Shown piece after piece: positions 21,015 to 34,485 of a stretch of 64,000 bases of DNA. How positions within the stretch are numbered: position 1 is the stretch's first letter; each line of letters opens with the position of its first letter. Source of the stretch: Pseudomonadota bacterium. GTDB lineage: Bacteria > Myxococcota > JACRCW01 > JAFGSX01. A model generated the notes under the pieces. It made no database searches. It saw only the letters and a program-made list of their open reading frames with translations, and had not been told where the DNA came from. A program made the position numbers and the translations under genes. The stretch is from NCBI GenBank assembly GCA_043821645.1, contig JBDRCO010000113.1, forward strand, positions 151,053 through 215,052. The letters run 5' to 3'.

Positions 21015-21449
21015 TCACCTGCCCTTGTTCCCGATTCGCAACGCGAACAAGCTGCCCTTGCCCGCCGGGCCACCGTCGCTGGCCGGGCGCTTGGACGGGG
21101 CCTCGGCACCCGTGACCCCGCTGGCGCGCGCGGCGTCGAACAGCCCCGCGTTCTCGAACAGGGCAGTAGCTGCCGTGTCCGAGAGCAGCAACACGCTCAC
21201 CAGCTCGCTCAGCTGCACCACCGCGCTCTCGGCGGCGTCACCGGCCTCGCGCTGCAGCTTGCCCGCCACCGCCAGCAGGTCCAGCGCCACGGTCTCGCGC
21301 CGCCCCTCGGGTACCGCCGCCAGGCGCTCGCGCCAGAGTTCCACGTCGTCCTCGTAGAGCAGCACGTCGCCCTCGACCAGAGCCATGGCGTGCAGAAGCT
21401 CCTGGGCCTCGCTGCACAGCTCGCCAGGTGCGACTGGAGCTTCGCTCAT
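21015..21449 (-). CDS. Hypothetical acidic helical protein
   Basis: ATGA overlap with the nadE-like stop; coding-type codon bias. Confidence 0.7.
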   Translation of the reverse strand: MSEAPVAPGELCSEAQELLHAMALVEGDVLLYEDDVELWRERLAAVPEGRRETVALDLLAVAGKLQREAGDAAESAVVQLSELVSVLLLSDTAATALFENAGLFDAARASGVTGAEAPSKRPASDGGPAGKGSLFALRIGNKGR

Positions 21450-22495
21450 CGCTTTCTCGCTTTCCCGCGTCGAGTGCTCTTGCTTCGATGCGTGGTCGCA
21501 TCACCGGCGAAGGGCTCGGGGCGCCATAGCGCTGGCGAGCCAAAGGCCTTGTGATGGCCGGCCATCACCAGATCGATCACGCGCATGAACTCGTCCCGCC
21601 GCAGGTCGGTGGAGCTCAGGACCTCGAGCAACTCGGCCTCGTCCCAGGGCACCACACCTTCGGCTTCGATGCGGCACTGGCCGATGATCACGTCGAGGGC
21701 AGCGCCGATGCGCGTGTAGGGCATGCCCAGCTCATCCTCGGCATCCTGACCCTTCCAGTAGCCCGGAGACGCGGGCTTGGCCGACAGGCGCAATGCCAGC
21801 TCCTCGTCCACGGCCGCGAGACCGACGCGCAGCAGTGCGCGCACCTCGTCCTTGTGCAGTCCGGTGATGGGAAACAGATCTGCGGTGGTGCCCTTGCTCG
21901 AGTAACCCAGGTAGGTCTCGTCGAGATCACCGGTGCCGACCACCAGACAACCGGTCCGGTTAGCCTCGTGGTAGAGCACGTCGTTGCGCAGACGCGAGAC
22001 CAGGTTCCCCTGCACCAGGCGACGCTGGGCCGCCGACACCGTGCCCAGTCGCCGCGTCATGCTCGCAAGCACGGGCCGGAGATCGATGAGGGTGTAGGGC
22101 AGCTGCAGGGCGTCCAGCAAGGCGCGAGCGTCGTCGAGATCTTGCGGATCACCACCGCAGGGCAGCAGATAGGCCCGGCTGCGCTCGGGCACAGCCCGCG
22201 CGAGCAGCACCGCCGCCAGCGAGGAGTCCACACCCCCCGAGACGCCGAGCACGCAACCACGCGCCCCGATGCGATCGACCTGGGCTCGGATCCATCGTGC
22301 GATCAGATCCAGGGCTCGGAGACCTGTTCGGTGGGTCAGTGCCTGCCAGCTGGCCTCGATGCGCTGCACGCGGCGCCAGGAGGCAGCCTGGCGAGCATTC
22401 CGCTGACGCAGGGCAGACAGGAGGGCAGGTCCGTCATCCGACGGGCGACGACGAGGAGAACGAGCGTGGGACGGTTTTGCTCGAACAGCGGGCAC
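21446..22495 (-). CDS. NAD synthetase (NadE)-like ATP pyrophosphatase, divergent
   Basis: GVSGGVDS PP-loop, GN..SRLR, LVVGTG...E...GY..K, K.ASPG.W.GQ..EDELG..Y, HK near the C-terminus. Confidence 0.82.
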   Translation of the reverse strand: MPAVRAKPSHARSPRRRPSDDGPALLSALRQRNARQAASWRRVQRIEASWQALTHRTGLRALDLIARWIRAQVDRIGARGCVLGVSGGVDSSLAAVLLARAVPERSRAYLLPCGGDPQDLDDARALLDALQLPYTLIDLRPVLASMTRRLGTVSAAQRRLVQGNLVSRLRNDVLYHEANRTGCLVVGTGDLDETYLGYSSKGTTADLFPITGLHKDEVRALLRVGLAAVDEELALRLSAKPASPGYWKGQDAEDELGMPYTRIGAALDVIIGQCRIEAEGVVPWDEAELLEVLSSTDLRRDEFMRVIDLVMAGHHKAFGSPALWRPEPFAGDATTHRSKSTRRGKARKR

Positions 22496-22501
22496 GTCGG
22501 C

Positions 22502-22993
22502 TCACTTGCCGCCGGGACGCCCCTTGGTGCTGCTCGTCCGGGGACGCGACACGGTACGGGTGGGGGTCGTGGTCGTGCTGCCCTTGCCGCTGTTGGTTGT
22601 CGGACGACGCACGGTGCGCCGCGTGGGCCGACTCACGCTGCCCTTACCACTGCCGGTCGACGGCCGGGTGGCGCCCTTGCCGCTGCCCGTCGAGGGGCGG
22701 CTAACCTGATCCTTCTGTGCGGTGTACTGCGCCTTGACCGCGCTGTAGAGCGTGGTGGCGATCTTGACCTCGCGACCGGCCAGACCCTGCTGGGTCGAGC
22801 TGGCGCCCTCGCGCTTGATCTCACCGAGCAGCTTCTTGGCGCCGTCAAGCACCTTCTTGGCGCGGTCGAGATCGCTGGCGGTCACCTTTCCGTCGGCGAT
22901 GGCCTTGAAGGCGGTCTTTGACAGCTGTCCGGTGGCGCGCGCGTCACCGGCGGCCTTGGCGGTCTTGGCCTGCAACTTGGCGATACTGGTCAT
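22502..22993 (-). CDS. Hypothetical protein with helical N-terminus and Ser/Thr/Arg-rich RP.T.SGKG repeats; candidate RiPP precursor
   Basis: GAGGAG RBS; C-terminal repeats RPSTGSGKG x2, RPTTNSGKG, RPRTSSTKG, ending RPGGK. Confidence 0.75.
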   Translation of the reverse strand: MTSIAKLQAKTAKAAGDARATGQLSKTAFKAIADGKVTASDLDRAKKVLDGAKKLLGEIKREGASSTQQGLAGREVKIATTLYSAVKAQYTAQKDQVSRPSTGSGKGATRPSTGSGKGSVSRPTRRTVRRPTTNSGKGSTTTTPTRTVSRPRTSSTKGRPGGK

Positions 22994-23109
22994 GCCCCAC
23001 TCCTCGGTCGACCTGCGACCCTGGTCCGCGCATAGTAGTATGAGCGGTTCGTTGGTCTTCTATCACAAGCCATGGATTTTTGGCGGGGACTGCTGCCAGG
23101 GGAGCAAGC

Positions 23110-23922
23110 GTGGCCAAGAAAGTGGCAACCGCCAAAACCGCGGTCTGGCCAGCCCATGATCTACGCTTTCACCGGGCCACGCGTACCTGGAGCCGCGCAG
23201 CCCGAGATGCGCAACGTCGGCTCCCGGCCGAGCCTGCGGTGCGGCCGGTGGGATCTGGCCCCGTGATCGAACTCCCGCTGGTGAGCGATGCGATCGGTGT
23301 TTCCCTGTTCGAGGCGCTGGCCCATCGGGAATCCGTGCGCGCCTACGCCGATGCTCCGCTCACCTTGGTGCAGCTCTCCCTGCTGCTGGGGCTGTCCGCG
23401 CAGAACACCGCAGGCCCCTGGACCTCGCGCGGCGACGGCATCGAGCGCGTGGCGCGCCTGTACCCCTCGGCGGGAGGCCTGCATGCCCTGGAGCTGTACC
23501 TCGCGCTCGACGACGGCAGCGTCGAGGGGCTGGCGGCGGGACTCCACCACTACTGTCCGCAACAGCACGCCTGTGAATGGCTGTGCGGACGGGTCGATGC
23601 GATCGAGATCCTGTTCGAGCGAGCCCGCAGTGTTCTCGATTCGGGCCGGCGCCCTCCCGTGCTCGTGCTCATCACCTCCCGCATGGCCCGCGCACGATCG
23701 CTGTACCCGGCCACGGCCTACAGCATGGTGCTCAAGGAGGTCGGCGCACTTTTGCAGACCCTGTACCTTGCGGCGACGGCGCTGGGCCTGGCGCCCTGTG
23801 CCCTGGCCGCCCTCGACGATGGGTCCCTGCTCGAAGACTGCGCGCAGCTCGATGCCCGGCGTGAGCCCCTGCTTGGCGAGCTCGCCATCGGACTCCCCCG
23901 GTCAGGCTCACCAGCACGGTGA
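23110..23922 (+). CDS. SagB/ThcOx family FMN-dependent dehydrogenase (nitroreductase fold)
   Basis: W..HDL.FH..TR, R.SVR.Y, YPSAGGLH.LELY, GLHHY.P..H, Y..VLKEVGALLQTLYLAATALGLAPCA. GTG start follows a GGGAG RBS. Confidence 0.85.
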   Translation: MAKKVATAKTAVWPAHDLRFHRATRTWSRAARDAQRRLPAEPAVRPVGSGPVIELPLVSDAIGVSLFEALAHRESVRAYADAPLTLVQLSLLLGLSAQNTAGPWTSRGDGIERVARLYPSAGGLHALELYLALDDGSVEGLAAGLHHYCPQQHACEWLCGRVDAIEILFERARSVLDSGRRPPVLVLITSRMARARSLYPATAYSMVLKEVGALLQTLYLAATALGLAPCALAALDDGSLLEDCAQLDARREPLLGELAIGLPRSGSPAR

Positions 23923-24013
23923 GTCGCGCAGGCGTTGCGCAGTGCGGCAACCTGACCTATGTCACGTTCCATCACAAGAAACGGGCACCGCGTGCCCGCT
24001 CATGGAGGACCTC

Positions 24014-24382
24014 ATGCTTCGCCGCGCCCTGTTCGTGTTGCTCCCCATCCTCACCCTCGCGTGCACCAAGCCTGCCGAGACTCCGGCCGCCGTGGAACCC
24101 ACCAAGGCCCCCGAACCGGTCGCGGCACCTGCCCCGGTCGCACAGCCTGCCGAGGCTGTTGCCGCCGAGCCCGCGTCGCAGCCTGCCGAGGCCGCGGCCG
24201 CAGCAGTCGCCTTCCCGGCCGAGCTGGTGGGTACCTCGGTCAAGGACCCGGTCTGCAACATGGACGTCACGGTCAAGGCCGACTCGCTGCACAGCGAGCA
24301 CGAGGGCAAGCACCAGTTCTTCTGCTCGGCCAACTGCAAGGAGAGCTTTGACAAGGATCCGGGCAAGTACGCGGCCAAGTAG
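24014..24382 (+). CDS. YHS-domain lipoprotein (metal binding)
   Basis: GGAGG RBS; lipobox TLAC; Pro/Ala linker; DPVCNMDV...H.FFCS..CK..F..DP.KY. Confidence 0.88.
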   Translation: MLRRALFVLLPILTLACTKPAETPAAVEPTKAPEPVAAPAPVAQPAEAVAAEPASQPAEAAAAAVAFPAELVGTSVKDPVCNMDVTVKADSLHSEHEGKHQFFCSANCKESFDKDPGKYAAK

Positions 24383-24409: not shown

Positions 24410-24766
24410 TCAGCCCCCGGCCGATCCGCCTCGCTCCTCGACAAAGCGCGTGATCCGCACGTGGTTGTCACCACTCAGGTCCACGAAGCGCAGGTGAGTC
24501 ACGGGTCTGTTGCCGTGCCAGCCGGCGCCCACCACCTCGGCCTTCACCTCGATGGGCAGCTCGTCTCCAGGGAGCGAGAACCGCAGGTTCACGATGGTGC
24601 CCACCTCGTGCGCCAGCCCGAGATCGAAGCGTAACCCACCCGGCGAGATGTCCACCGCACGGCAGAAGGTCTTCTCGCTCGCGTGGTGCTGATCGACCCA
24701 CAGGTCGACATCAACGCGGGTCTCCAGCCGCCGCTCTGCTTCCCTGTCCTCGTCTGTCGTGCTCAT
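24410..24766 (-). CDS. PilZ domain protein
   Basis: ERR...R and DISPGG c-di-GMP-binding motifs. Confidence 0.85.
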   Translation of the reverse strand: MSTTDEDREAERRLETRVDVDLWVDQHHASEKTFCRAVDISPGGLRFDLGLAHEVGTIVNLRFSLPGDELPIEVKAEVVGAGWHGNRPVTHLRFVDLSGDNHVRITRFVEERGGSAGG

Positions 24767-24927
24767 GCATGCACCCTGGGGAGGTTGTCCTCCTGATCCT
24801 GACGCCTGTGCCCCGCCAGCGCAACCCACGGCCGCGCAAGCTGTTGGAAGAACCCGACATCGGTCATTTGTATGAGGGACACCTACATGGTGCGAGTCGA
24901 TACTACCCTCGAATCAAGGAGGCCATC

Positions 24928-30221: not shown

Positions 30222-30334
30222 AGGGGGCGGTCGGCCCGCCCCCTCTGCCAGCGGAGTGAATCCGCTGGCATTCACCCCCGGCAGCAGCTGCGGTGATCGC
30301 CTGGTTCCAGGTCGGGGCGGTCGGCCCGCCCCCT
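30222..30334. repeat. Structured intergenic repeat element, copy B; may act as a bidirectional terminator or stabiliser
   Basis: Perfect 9-bp hairpin at 30222-30244, perfect 10-bp hairpin at 30246-30270, then TTCACCCCCG, then a 21-nt direct repeat of the first hairpin at 30314-30334. Confidence 0.7.
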
Positions 30335-32913
30335 CACAAAGACATCACAATCTCACGTGCGGGATCTCGCAGGTTGTAGTGCGAACTCATGGCGTGGCCG
30401 TAGGCCCCTGCCGTCGCGACCAGCAACACATCTCCCTCGTGGCAAGCGGCCATCCGGCGCGCGAACCCCAGGGTGTCGCCGCTCTCGCAGATAGGCCCCA
30501 CCACGTTGGCCGGTGCTGTCACAGCTTGACCCAGCCGCGACAGGTTGACGATCTCGTGGTGCGCCCCGTACAGCGCGGGCCGGATCAGGCTGTTCATCCC
30601 TGCATCCACGCCCACGTACGCCACGTCGCCCTTGCGCTTGGTCTGGGTCACCCGCGCAAGCAGCACGCCGGCCTCGGCGACCAAAAAGCGCCCGGGCTCG
30701 ACCCACAGCTGGCAGCGCGGATGCGCCCGCCGCACCGCGGCCAGGCTGTCGTCGACGGCGGCCAGATCCAGGGCTCGCTGGCCAGGCCTCTCGACCACGC
30801 CGAGCCCACCGCCGACGTCGATCACAGCGAGGTGAGCAAAGCGCTCGGCCAGCTGTGCCAGGGTCAACGCCGTCTCGGCCCAGCTCTCGGCCCGGCGGAT
30901 GCCACTGCCTGCGTGCGCGTGCAGGCCCACCACTCGGGCCCCGCAGGTATCCACGGCGCTCTCGAGGTCATCGAGCTGCTCCAGGGCCACCCCAAACTTG
31001 GCGTGCTGCCCGGCGGTGCGCACGTGCGCGTGGTGTCCCTGGCCGTGACCGGGGTCCACTCGCACGAAGAGATCGCGCTGCGCGAACAAGTCCGGCCAGT
31101 GCCGCAGGGGATGCAGGTTGTCGACGGTGACCCGCACCCCCAGGTCCAGGGCGCGGGCGTATTCCTCCCGGGGAGCGAAGTTGGGCGTGAACAGCAGCCT
31201 GTCGGCACTCAGTGCCGGCAGCACCGCGCGCACGTGGTCCAGCTCCCCGCTCGACACGCACTCGAAGCCGAGACCCAGACGATCGAAAAGCCGCAAGATC
31301 TCGGGGTGGGGATTGGCCTTGAGGGCATAGAACACGCGGTCGATCGAGCCGAGGTCCAGGAGTCGCTGTGCGGCCTGCTCCAGGCTCGAGGGGTCGTAGA
31401 CGTACACCGGCGTGCCGCGCCCGGCCTCGTCGAGGAGTTGCTCGCGGTGCCGGCGCCACCAGCGCGGTACCTGGTCCTTGCCATCCCGGGGAGCGAACAG
31501 GTCACGCCACGAGGCACCCTCCTCGTCGTCGGCACGATCCTGAAACAGCAGCCAGTGCAGGCGCCGCACCAGCCGCTCCGACTGATCCTCGTCGACCACG
31601 AAGGTCAGGTTCAGGTCGCTGGCAGCCTGGCTGACGAGGTGGATGCGCTGCTCCTCGAAGACCTCGAGGGCCGGCCCGAGGTGATGCAGGATGCCGCGGA
31701 TGTTGCGGCCGACCAGGCTGATGGCTGCGCAGGGGCCAATGGTGCGAGCACGGCAGTAGCGACCTAGCCCTCCGAGCAGGTCGTGCAAGACCGAGGGTTC
31801 CAGGGAGTTGGCCTGGGCATCCAGCGATACCGTGACATTGCTCTCCGACGTGGACACCAGGTCCACCGACAGGCCGAGCTGCTTGAACACCGCGAACACG
31901 TCCGCCAGGAAGCCGACCTGCTGCCACATGCCCATGGTGTCCATGGACACCAGGGTGAGCTGGCCCCGCGCGGCAATGGCCTTGACCTGCCCTGGCCCGG
32001 GATCGACGCTGCCATCGATCACGGTGCCGTCGACGTCGGGGTGGGTGGTGCAGCGGATGTGCAGCGGAATGCCGTGGCGCCTCGCGGGAGCCAGACAGCG
32101 CGGGTGCAGAACCTTGGCGCCCATGGACGCCAGCTCCTGGGCCTCGTCGTAGTCGAGATGAGGCAGCAACAGGGCCGCCGGGATCTGGTGCGGGTTGGCC
32201 GTGTACATCCCCGGCACATCGGTCCAGATCTCGCAGCGCGCCGCACCCAGGCGTGCGGCCAGCAGGGTGGCCGAGGTATCGGAGCCGCCCCGCCCCAGCA
32301 GCACGGTGTGGCCCTCGGCGTCGCGAGCGATGAAGCCCTGCGTGACCAGGATATCGGCCTCGAGATCCGCCAGACGCGCGGCCAGCGCAGGGTCCGGCGC
32401 GTCGTCACAGCTCGCCGACAGGAGGTTGCGTCGCTCACCTGCCAGGGGATCGTGCTGACTCGTCATCAACTCGCGCGCGTCCAGCCACTGCGCCGTCAGA
32501 CCCTGTTGCTGCATCCAGGCCACCCCCAGCCGGGTGGCCATGAGCTCACCATGGGCGAGCACGCGAGCGCGCAGGCGTGGGCTGACCTCACCGATGAGCG
32601 CGATACCGTGCGCCAGCCGCTCGAGCGAGCTCAGGTCATCGGCGATGGGCAGGGGCTCCCCCAGACCCAGATCGCGGGCCAGCGCACGATGACGCTGCGC
32701 GATCATCTGGAGCAGATCACCGGGGTGCTCGGCCAGGGCCTCGTCGAGAAGCCGCTCGAGCGCATTGGTGATGCCGCTGAGTGCGGAGCACACCACCAGG
32801 GGCCGCAAGCCCTCGCCGAGGCAGCGCCGGGCCTGGGTGGCAATGGTCTGCCAGCTCTCCACCGTCGCCACGCTGGTACCGCCGAACTTGAGCACGACGA
32901 AGGACGGAGCCAT
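30334..32913 (-). CDS. lysAC: Bifunctional aspartate kinase / diaminopimelate decarboxylase
   Basis: VLKFGGTS, LGRGGSD, GAKVLHP and ACT domains, followed by YALKAN (PLP lysine), HAHAGS, EPGRFLVA, GPICESGD. Confidence 0.93.
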   Translation of the reverse strand: MAPSFVVLKFGGTSVATVESWQTIATQARRCLGEGLRPLVVCSALSGITNALERLLDEALAEHPGDLLQMIAQRHRALARDLGLGEPLPIADDLSSLERLAHGIALIGEVSPRLRARVLAHGELMATRLGVAWMQQQGLTAQWLDARELMTSQHDPLAGERRNLLSASCDDAPDPALAARLADLEADILVTQGFIARDAEGHTVLLGRGGSDTSATLLAARLGAARCEIWTDVPGMYTANPHQIPAALLLPHLDYDEAQELASMGAKVLHPRCLAPARRHGIPLHIRCTTHPDVDGTVIDGSVDPGPGQVKAIAARGQLTLVSMDTMGMWQQVGFLADVFAVFKQLGLSVDLVSTSESNVTVSLDAQANSLEPSVLHDLLGGLGRYCRARTIGPCAAISLVGRNIRGILHHLGPALEVFEEQRIHLVSQAASDLNLTFVVDEDQSERLVRRLHWLLFQDRADDEEGASWRDLFAPRDGKDQVPRWWRRHREQLLDEAGRGTPVYVYDPSSLEQAAQRLLDLGSIDRVFYALKANPHPEILRLFDRLGLGFECVSSGELDHVRAVLPALSADRLLFTPNFAPREEYARALDLGVRVTVDNLHPLRHWPDLFAQRDLFVRVDPGHGQGHHAHVRTAGQHAKFGVALEQLDDLESAVDTCGARVVGLHAHAGSGIRRAESWAETALTLAQLAERFAHLAVIDVGGGLGVVERPGQRALDLAAVDDSLAAVRRAHPRCQLWVEPGRFLVAEAGVLLARVTQTKRKGDVAYVGVDAGMNSLIRPALYGAHHEIVNLSRLGQAVTAPANVVGPICESGDTLGFARRMAACHEGDVLLVATAGAYGHAMSSHYNLRDPAREIVMSL

Positions 32914-32977
32914 GACTCCTCCCCGCGCGACCCGTTGAATTCGGGTGCGCGTGCAAGGGGTGCACGTGAGTGGAAGG

Positions 32978-34485
32978 TCAGCCGTCTCGCGGCGTCGTGT
33001 CGTCGAGAGGAACCACGGTGAGCTTGAGCCCGTCCACCGCGACGATGCGGACCCGGGTCTTGGGTGGGATGACCTGCGACGAGAACGCGGCCCAGGTCTC
33101 GGGTCCGTGCTGAACCTTGCCACCCTGGGCTCCGATCTCGGTCAGGGTCAGGGCCGGCTGGCCCACCATGCCCTGGGCGCCTGTCACCGGGGGCCGCTGC
33201 CGCGAGCGCATGACCATCACACCGGTGAAGGCAAGGACCCCGAGGGTGGCGATGACGGTGGGCCACATGGCCCAGGGTGATACCCCGTAGGATGGCTCCG
33301 CCCACAAGTTCGGGTCCACGTCGTCGACGAGGATCATGCCGCCAATGACCACCGCGGCGGCACCTCCGATTCCGAGCGCACCGAAGGAGGGCAAGAAAGC
33401 CTCGGCCACCAGCATCCCCGCGCCGACCAGGATGAGCAGGATCCCGCCCACGTTGACCGGAACGATCTGAAACGAGATGAAGGCCAGCAGCAGCGAGATG
33501 GCGCCGAGCACGCCCGGAAAAATCACGCCCGGGTGGTACATCTCCATGGCAATGCCCAGGATGCCGGCCATGAACAGCAGATACGACACGTTGGGGTTGG
33601 CGAAGGTGTTGACCACCTTGCTGCCAAAGGACATCTCGTGGTGCTCGACCAGGGCCCCCTTGCAGCGCAGGGTCTTCCACTCGCCCGCGACCTCGACCAC
33701 CAGGCCGTCCGCCTTCTCCAGCATCTCGTCGACGTCCCGCGCCAGCAGATCGATGACGCCGATCTCGAGCGCCTTGCTGCTCACCACCGACACCGACTCG
33801 ACCACGGCCTTGCGCGCCCACGCCTTGTTGCGATGGCGCTGCTCGGCGATGCCCTCGATGAAAGCGGCGGTGTCCTCCTCGGCCTTGGCGGCCAGGTGCT
33901 TGGCGTTGTCGTCCTGTCCCTCGCCGCCCCCCCACCGACACTCACCGGGTGCGCAGCTCCGATGTTGGTGCTGGGGGCCATGGCCGCAACGTGGGCTGCC
34001 ATGGTGATGAAGGCGCCGGCCGAGGCTGCGCGTGCTCCCGAAGGGGCCACCAGCACGGCCACCGGAATCCTGGCCGCCATGAAGCCCTTGACGATGTCGC
34101 GGGTGGAGTCGAGCAAGCCGCCGGGCGTGTCGAGGCGAAACACCACCATGCCGAAGCCACGCTTCTCGGCCTGCTCGATGCTCTTGAGAAAGTGATCCTT
34201 GGTACCCGGGTTGATGGTGCCGTCGACGTCACTCATCAGCACCCGCGTGATCTTGAGCTCACCCTCCGCGGCCGGGCGGCTCGCGGGCTGCGAACTTGGC
34301 TCGGGCGGCGTCTCCTCGACGGGTTTGGGCAGATCCGCAAGGTCGCTCGCCGAGGCACCACCCGACACCGGCGGCGGGCCCGCGGCCGCCCCGAGCAGGC
34401 TACTGAGAACGGCGAGCCCGACCAGGGCGCCCGAGGTCACGGCCACGCGGCCGATTCGCGTCGACAGGACAGATGTTCTTCGCAT
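32978..34485 (-). pseudogene. nfeD: NfeD family membrane-bound ClpP-class serine protease, frameshifted at a G7 tract (33927-33933)
   Basis: LDTPGGLL, RAASAG and IGAAHPV lie in one frame; the sequence continues in another frame as ...KAEEDTAAFIEGIAEQRHRN..WA, then TM helices and a C-terminal OB fold (GETWAA). Confidence 0.85.

Follow-up and report, generated by a model that had tools for sequence, protein, structure and literature searches.

A short-loop NadE-family enzyme closely linked to a lysine-repeat protein in two bacterial phyla suggests a previously undescribed protein-modifying pair

What does a relative of the nicotinamide adenine dinucleotide (NAD) synthetase NadE do when its gene lies a few nucleotides downstream of a gene for a protein with a tail of lysine-bearing repeats? 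This question is raised by a compact minus-strand operon in a 64,000-nucleotide stretch (hereafter the window, with a G+C content of 63-70%) of the myxococcotal contig JBDRCO010000113.1. The source genome of the window, G000, spans 7.07 Mb and is 94.7% complete. The operon comprises three open reading frames (ORFs) encoding a repeat protein of 163 amino acids (aa) (22502..22993), a 349-aa short-loop PP-loop ATP pyrophosphatase of the NadE family (21446..22495) and a 144-aa acidic protein that we called A1 (21015..21449). These ORFs and their junctions were as an initial annotation of the window had described them. The NadE-like ORF begins with GTG, 6 nucleotides (nt) after the stop codon of the repeat-protein gene, and its own stop overlaps the start of A1 as ATGA. 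Comparison with related loci indicates that the repeat protein and the NadE-fold enzyme form a conserved, closely linked pair and suggests that they are a previously undescribed protein-modifying pair.

The enzyme of the window defines a clade of 32 protein clusters with scores of 224-675 bits, the next score, 105 bits, being that of an ordinary NadE. In a maximum-likelihood tree this clade was recovered with supports of 88/96. It was present in 10 of 401 Myxococcota genomes (11 loci) and in 3 of 201 genomes of a second phylum, that of G402, which bears the names Candidatus Xenobia and Eremiobacterota. Linkage was counted over the 16 clade loci for which upstream sequence could be examined. 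In 12 of them, belonging to both phyla, a repeat gene on the same strand immediately precedes the enzyme gene at a distance of 2-60 nt, so that the linkage of NadE-like homologues to repeat peptides on which the initial annotation had counted is indeed conserved.

Five of these loci (the window, L035, L036, L075, and L076) are three-gene cassettes in which the upstream gene encodes a domain that we called A3 followed by the repeat tail, and in which A1 lies downstream of the enzyme. The enzymes of the cassette-bearing genomes G003 and G034 are 54 and 52% identical to that of the window, and L075 and L076 are two metagenome contigs carrying the same arrangement. Five loci from the Myxococcota family f11 (L086, L087, L080, L089, and L091), whose subclade had supports of 98/99, encode repeat proteins of 74-152 aa without A3, with motifs of the VRTGGGKSG or LRSGGSKGG type and a stop codon 2-60 nt before the enzyme start. 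In the second phylum, the repeat protein of L097 has 63 aa and contains GKGS units, its gene ending 3 nt ahead of the enzyme; that of L098, from a 42%-GC genome, is 205 aa long, repeats KPTTSSGKGSA about 13 times and is encoded 55 nt ahead of the enzyme. In six loci the repeat protein lacks an A3 domain and the motifs begin near its N-terminus. The deepest supported split of the clade tree has repeat-linked loci in both of its branches. The recurrence of the pairing in 12 of 16 loci, with and without A3 and A1, thus points to the repeat protein and the short-loop enzyme as the conserved unit.

The repeats themselves are well defined. In agreement with the initial annotation, which had seen a helical N-terminus of about 95 aa followed by Ser/Thr-rich repeats, AlphaFold2 predicted four helices in residues 4-98 of the window protein, with predicted local distance difference test (pLDDT) values above 90, whereas residues 99-163 had values of 51-64, consistent with disorder. 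The A3 domain (residues 1-95; 22709..22993, minus strand) was delimited from alignments and AlphaFold2, and the disordered tail (residues 96-163 and the stop codon; 22502..22708, minus strand) from the sequence and AlphaFold2. The gene has a third-position G+C content (GC3) of 0.86, and P0003-P0007 are homologues of its product. The tail contains the motifs STGSGKG (twice), TTNSGKG, and TSSTKG and finishes with RPGGK, and acidic residues are absent beyond residue 94; the repeats are rich in Ser and Thr and contain no Cys. Among the 63,081 stop-to-stop ORFs of at least 60 aa in G000, four had at least three such motifs within 100 aa, and only the window ORF had four; the SGKG-type repeats of this ORF exceed chance. 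Tandem Repeats Finder detected no DNA-level array in the tail, and the repeats are therefore conserved at the peptide level only.

Composition, C-terminus and motif were then compared over 15 repeat-protein sequences. They are very basic and nearly acid-free, with the consensus repeat [ST][SG][SG]GK[GS], and those of the five A3-type cassettes contain 2-7 units of the RPSTGSGKG type. Within the motif, the lysine alone is both invariant and nucleophilic, and its neighbours are Gly, Ser or Thr. The tails contain 0-1 Asp or Glu in 14 of the 15 proteins and four in that of L089, and the C-terminal residue is Lys in 13 and Arg in two, usually within a G-K or G-x-K end. Neither the 163-aa nor the 144-aa protein of the window matched a Pfam or NCBIfam family. 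A Foldseek search of the PDB with the repeat-protein model gave a best E-value of 0.29 and nothing at or below 0.001, and Protein Atlas yielded no usable feature match for A1 or the repeat protein, its structural rows being mutually unrelated and at a template-modelling (TM) score of about 0.5 or less (best 0.52).

The enzyme had been described as a divergent NadE-like ligase, a description borne out by the profile searches. It matched PF02540 (NAD_synthase) with an E-value of 6.7e-38 and passed TIGR00552 (126.7 bits for a cut-off of 63.65), and its closest PDB matches were NH3-dependent NAD synthetases, with 88 bits to 2e18. It did not reach the equivalog model NF010587 (144.1 bits for a cut-off of 255), nor did the cassette enzymes of G003 (157.5 bits) and G034 (132.1 bits). 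Its loop G-Y-S-S-K-G-T-T-A-D (residues 197-206; 21878..21907, minus strand), delimited by HMMER against PDB NadE, by paralogue alignment and by pattern scan, reads K-G-T-T-A-D where ordinary NadE has K-x-G-D-G-x-x-D and is thus shorter by two residues, G-D; the long form is present in both other paralogues of G000 and in the PDB NadE chains. The pattern K-G-x-x-x-D was recovered in all 23 clade members matched by the scan, whereas the six next-best ordinary NadE have K-[YF]-G-D-[GA]-[GA]-A-D. The other nine of the 32 members fell outside the pattern, for instance with GTGN instead of GTGD; one of them, the G003 enzyme P0159, has the short loop in the alignment.

The clade has otherwise kept the features of NadE: the PP-loop, which is SGGVDS in the window (residues 86-91; 22223..22240, minus strand), recovered by pattern scan and invariant in the alignments, GN..SR.R, E193, K201, K215, the PG.W.GQ.AE.ELG segment and a C-terminal HK. 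In comparison with NadE (PF02540, TIGR00552; PDB 2e18, 3fiu, 1ee1), the cassette enzyme thus shares the fold family, as judged from sequence, the PP-loop SGGxDS, GN..R.R, the E/K/K catalytic-site positions, the P..G.W.GQ..E.ELG segment and the C-terminal HK, and differs in its loop, its sub-equivalog score, its N- and C-terminal extensions, its linkage to a lysine-repeat gene and its invariable occurrence as an additional copy. The databases annotate clade proteins as 'NAD(+) synthase'. In one of these entries, P0157, the window enzyme starts at an internal GTG and has 307 aa; we favoured the 349-aa form because homologues are conserved from residue 29 on and there is no alternative start codon between codons 1 and 43.

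All 13 clade-bearing genomes checked contained a further NAD_synthase gene, which in 12 of them falls in an open frame 585-1270 aa long, the size expected of a two-domain NadE. The concern, raised at the outset, that the enzyme might be the only nadE of its genome is thereby removed. Since another such gene is present in every one of these genomes, the enzyme is probably not the NAD synthetase of the cell, and we consider it an accessory copy rather than a housekeeping one. By sequence it is a member of the NadE superfamily, but it fails the three equivalog features tested, namely score, loop and sole-copy role. In G000, the paralogue on contig C44 passes NF002048 (502.5 bits for a cut-off of 313). 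The third NadE-family paralogue of this genome, of 344 aa (L003:410-2181, on G000:C87), adjoins the gene of an NrtR-like Nudix regulator (NF050029, 151.8 bits, under the cut-off of 400).

In the subclade of the window, the pair is embedded in a separate Myxococcota module formed by A3 and A1, two families without Pfam assignment that we define here from alignments. A3 carries the conserved motif G-Q/L-I/L-S..F...TDG.VS..D. A1 of the window, supported as an ORF, by family alignments and by AlphaFold2, is acidic (23 Asp and Glu vs 13 Lys and Arg); its residues ~10-105 are predicted to form a helical domain with a small hairpin (mean pLDDT of 84.9), with a disordered tail beyond, and its C-terminus bears a short S-L-F-A-L-R..K/R motif. 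The A1 family was detected in at least 22 of the 401 Myxococcota genomes with the stricter search mode, and in 473 cluster representatives (E-value of 0.001 or less) among 1.84 billion proteins, the best 150 of which were all 90-174 aa long.

A1 is the partner usually found downstream of A3 genes. Of the 30 A1 loci fetched, 11 have an A3 gene immediately upstream. Three of these 11 are cassettes and the other eight have neither the enzyme gene nor SGKG repeats; the metagenome cassettes L075 and L076 contribute two further A3-A1 loci. Repeats are thus present in five of five A3 genes followed by the enzyme and in none of the eight A3-A1 pairs without it. In the cassettes, the 3' end of A3 continues in frame into the repeats, and A3 and A1 flank the enzyme gene. 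Because eight loci carry A3-A1 without repeats or enzyme, A3-A1 is a module of its own. The N-terminal ~95 aa of the repeat protein, previously taken for a leader, are instead a confidently predicted folded domain (pLDDT >90) of a family that is paired with A1 in these eight repeat-free loci. None of the seven clade-bearing f11 genomes was among the A1-positive genomes, and searches of the L072 and L074 genomes gave neither A1 nor A3.

Structural comparisons left the two families without relatives in the collections searched. With the A1 model, Foldseek gave a best E-value of 0.56 and none at or below 0.001, and VIA-align a best Z of 7.0, to generic helical repeats and within the noise stated by the tool. 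Prediction of a complex between the A3 N-domain and A1 returned no verdict either way, with a score of 0.00. When every sequence in the A1 and A3 alignments was searched against Pfam, with E-values up to 1 allowed, the matches were few, single and scattered, one of them a weak match to SHOCT. As a separate matter, the C-terminal motif of A1 was considered as an encapsulin cargo signal and rejected, there being no PF04454 shell gene in G000.

How could such an enzyme act on such a protein? The interpretation that we favour, though tentatively, is that of an enzyme-substrate pair in which the short-loop NadE paralogue would acylate the repeat lysines through an acyl-adenylate, the pair being embedded, at the window, in the A3-A1 module. 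The enzyme would adenylate a carboxylate using ATP, as NadE does, and this carboxylate would most likely be of the pyridine-nucleotide type, nicotinic acid adenine dinucleotide (NaAD) or nicotinic acid mononucleotide (NaMN), since the enzyme retains motifs specific to NadE over the full length of the domain. In the reaction of NadE, the nicotinate carboxylate of NaAD is adenylated and ammonia then displaces AMP (PMC3376133). With the cassette enzyme, the epsilon-amine of the repeat lysines would capture the activated acyl group instead of free ammonia, and the product would be a multiply N6-acylated intracellular protein. In the Bacillus subtilis enzyme, the G-D missing from the short loop is placed beside the reacting carboxylate and the ammonia site, and its loss may bear on the change of nucleophile. 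A role of the repeat protein as a multi-site substrate is plausible, and this part of the initial annotation, which had proposed a leader plus multi-core precursor modified by a NadE-fold enzyme, can be retained, whereas a leader-guided azole peptide cannot.

The nearest precedent for the mechanism proposed is LarE (TIGR00268), a PP-loop relative. LarE is the sacrificial sulfur transferase of lactate racemase cofactor synthesis; it adenylates a nicotinic-acid-derived carboxylate that is attacked by a protein side chain and not by ammonia. The nucleophile of LarE is its own cysteine, whereas in our proposal it would be a lysine of the separate repeat protein. In NCBIfam, both other NadE paralogues of G000 matched LarE weakly and the cassette enzyme did not match it at an E-value of 0.01 or less. 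The most specific form of the proposal, which seems to us rather improbable, is that the enzyme no longer finishes NAD with ammonia and transfers adenylate-activated NaAD or NaMN onto the SGKG lysines, so that pyridine nucleotides would be tethered via the carboxamide nitrogen on a flexible tail. If true, the protein would carry a bound, NAD-like cofactor or store in the manner of a 'swinging arm', through a previously undescribed post-translational modification.

Several points weigh against the acylation of repeat lysines. With the NadE domain model passed and the ATP and NadE motifs kept, the enzyme could simply make NAD, and the proposal assigns no function to A1 or to the A3 domain. Four of the 16 clade loci have no nearby repeat gene (L085/L072, L088, L090, and L074), L088 and L090 being a sister pair from one genus and L074 ending inside the enzyme gene. 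A search with the L087 protein, a weak query on account of its low complexity, found no repeat protein elsewhere in G141, G233 or G402, and in G113 it matched only the repeat gene at the second locus of that genome, L086. Related genomes do not provide independent evidence, and the five A3-type cassettes may stem from a single fusion event. The likeness of the repeat proteins between subclades is one of motifs in low-complexity sequence and need not reflect common descent. Finally, for the short repeat genes, GC3 fails to separate the sense frame from the one antisense frame sharing its wobble position. Their strand was assigned from the in-frame A3 fusion of the cassette subclade and from the operon gene order; a Shine-Dalgarno-like sequence precedes two of them.

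The same observations bear on the other explanations. The enzyme might be a true NAD+ synthetase paralogue and the repeat protein a regulator, scaffold, or phosphate- or nucleotide-binding partner. This would accommodate the passing of TIGR00552 and PF02540, the NH3-dependent NAD synthetases as best PDB matches, the retention of NadE motifs, the database name 'NAD(+) synthase' and the four of 16 loci without a repeat gene. We nevertheless consider it unlikely, the enzyme being an extra copy in 13 of 13 genomes, rare (10/401 and 3/201 genomes), short of the equivalog cut-off (144 vs 255 bits) and deprived of the loop G-D in all pattern-matched members, and its close cross-phylum linkage to lysine repeats having no counterpart found in the NadE literature. 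Quite unlikely, in our opinion, is the activation by the enzyme of the alpha-carboxylate at the conserved ...G(x)K end, the sole carboxylate available in the tail, producing a C-terminal amide, or an isopeptide with a repeat lysine and thus a cyclic or polymeric protein. The 0-1 acidic residues in 14 of 15 tails and the Lys end in 13 of 15 proteins would agree with it, and peptide carboxylates are the substrates of amidoligase relatives such as lasso cyclases and the enzymes of thiopeptide C-terminal amidation. However, the likeness to NadE spans the parts that hold NaAD and so points to a nucleotide-like acyl substrate, and a single carboxylate per chain would leave 2-13 repeats unexplained unless the lysines were acceptors. 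Lasso cyclases and other AsnB-like amidoligases resemble the cassette in performing ATP-dependent adenylation and amide formation on a ribosomal peptide encoded beside the enzyme, but they belong to the Asn_synthase family, whereas the window enzyme is a NAD_synthase without a PF00733 match. They also need an Asp or Glu side chain, of which the tails are nearly devoid, and depend on a leader, recognition element and protease, of which the cassette loci showed no sign. Another comparison is the diphthamide synthetase Dph6, an adenine-nucleotide alpha-hydrolase-type enzyme that amidates a protein carboxylate; it differs in belonging to another subfamily and in acting at one site on EF2, with ammonia as the nucleophile.

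A ribosomally synthesized and post-translationally modified peptide (RiPP) in the broad sense, that is, a multi-core precursor whose modified SGKG units would be cut out and released as small peptides, also has a low probability for us. As in RiPP systems generally, 12 of the 16 loci encode a putative modifying enzyme next to a ribosomally made candidate substrate that has repeated sites, the short repeated units lie between conserved spacers (RP, KP), and a dedicated enzyme gene follows immediately downstream. The leader, recognition element and protease or exporter are missing from this picture: no gene for a protease, exporter or recognition element was conserved at any related locus, and none for a protease, ABC exporter or other RiPP function was present within ~10 kb at the window, where the initial annotation had likewise seen no protease or exporter. 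Moreover, the repeats of the A3 subclade are attached to a folded domain, and six precursors have motifs starting near the N-terminus without A3, so that the N-terminal part is either folded or nearly absent. We give little credence to the idea that the tail is a basic, disordered, histone-H1-like binder of polyanions (DNA, polyphosphate) next to which the enzyme gene would be a passenger without biochemical link. The tail is indeed very basic and disordered, some A1-family proteins have PAKA-type H1-like tails, and Protein Atlas returned a weak row for the AlgP helical domain, at a TM of 0.40, below any meaningful bar; yet this would leave unexplained why the two genes are linked at 2-60 nt in 12 of 16 loci from two phyla and why the G-K context and the C-terminal Lys are conserved. 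The version of the initial annotation, a thiazole/oxazole-type RiPP made with the adjacent SagB and a YcaO acting in trans, is already contradicted and has become extremely improbable. It drew on the Ser/Thr-rich repeats and on the SagB-family dehydrogenase gene (280 aa; 23080..23922, plus strand), which scored 115.2 bits against TIGR03605 (cut-off 78.4) and is divergent from the operon as stated, at 86 nt for the longest ORF and not ~115 bp. SagB adjoins the cassette only in the window among the five complete cassettes; TIGR03605 found no match in the cassette-bearing, 96% complete G034, and the copies of G003 are on contigs other than that of the cassette. YcaO (PF02624) gave no match in the five genomes searched (G000, G003, G034, G002, and G030), whereas control genomes gave matches. 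The repeats lack Cys, and there is no leader logic. An azole RiPP is therefore not supported, since the SagB linkage is not conserved, YcaO was not found and no protease or exporter is nearby, and we judge SagB to be an unrelated neighbour of the pair. The cassette is neither a thiazole/oxazole-modified (SagB/YcaO) system nor a lasso-type one.

NAD synthetase is viewed as a single-purpose housekeeping enzyme. A recurrent short-loop paralogue tied to a lysine-repeat protein in two phyla would give the NadE fold a new function, that of a protein- or peptide-directed amidoligase, the lysine-repeat protein would be a new kind of substrate, and the plain 'NAD(+) synthase' annotation of clade proteins would be corrected. 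A literature search, with subscription papers outside its scope, did not turn up any NadE-family enzyme described as the partner of a repeat protein. The pair could correspond to an adenylating amidoligase with a ribosomal substrate, and we see a modest chance that its chemistry is categorically new.

Some observations concern the loci compared above. G000 contains two more A1-family genes (G000:C105:8298-8705, minus strand, and G000:C1:14972-15391, plus strand), neither of them beside a NadE-like gene. At L054:1785-3290 (minus strand) of G017, the A3 domain reads through, stop-free, from the C-terminal end of a GMC-type oxidoreductase-like sequence, and an A1 gene follows; either the fusion is genuine or a TTG start was missed, in a low-quality, 72% complete genome. 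The A1 proteins at L050:1321-1773 (minus strand, G262) and L065:1297-1755 (minus strand, G390) have long Pro/Ala/Lys tails (PKAAAKPKA...) resembling those of histone H1 and AlgP, a hint of possible polyanion binding by the A3-A1 module. The G113 locus without an upstream repeat gene (L085:4283-5197, minus strand, identical to L072:6935-7762, plus strand), the only such Myxococcota locus with a partner gene after the enzyme, has as downstream partner a 275-aa helical protein ending in ...GGGTTKGKVGRKA, whose single Gly-Lys end resembles the C-termini of the repeat proteins; hhalign found it unrelated to the A3 profile, with a probability of 0.2%. At L088 and L090 (G233 and G141), the enzyme is preceded by a 158-aa ORF with a PilZ-type look, by eye only.

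In G034, just upstream of the cassette (L036:4735-8686), are genes for a seven-transmembrane transglutaminase (PF14402, PF14400, PF01841), an ATPgrasp_ST protein (PF14397) and a 440-aa protein without Pfam match. This trio is another candidate peptide- or protein-modification set, found beside the cassette in G034 only. A second SagB-family gene of G000 is on contig C43. PADLOC matched none of the four window proteins and neither of two clade enzymes.

Within ~10 kb, the window also encodes transport, lipid A, Pta, TPR, PilZ (24410-24829, minus strand), peptidoglycan-binding and sigma/anti-sigma proteins. At 23080-24382, the SagB gene is followed by an ORF with a lipoprotein-like N-terminus and a C-terminal YHS (metal-binding) domain. 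Farther along, at 30334-33123 on the minus strand, a single 929-aa ORF combines amino-acid kinase, ACT and Orn/DAP/Arg decarboxylase domains and looks like an aspartokinase-type enzyme joined to a diaminopimelate-decarboxylase-type enzyme.

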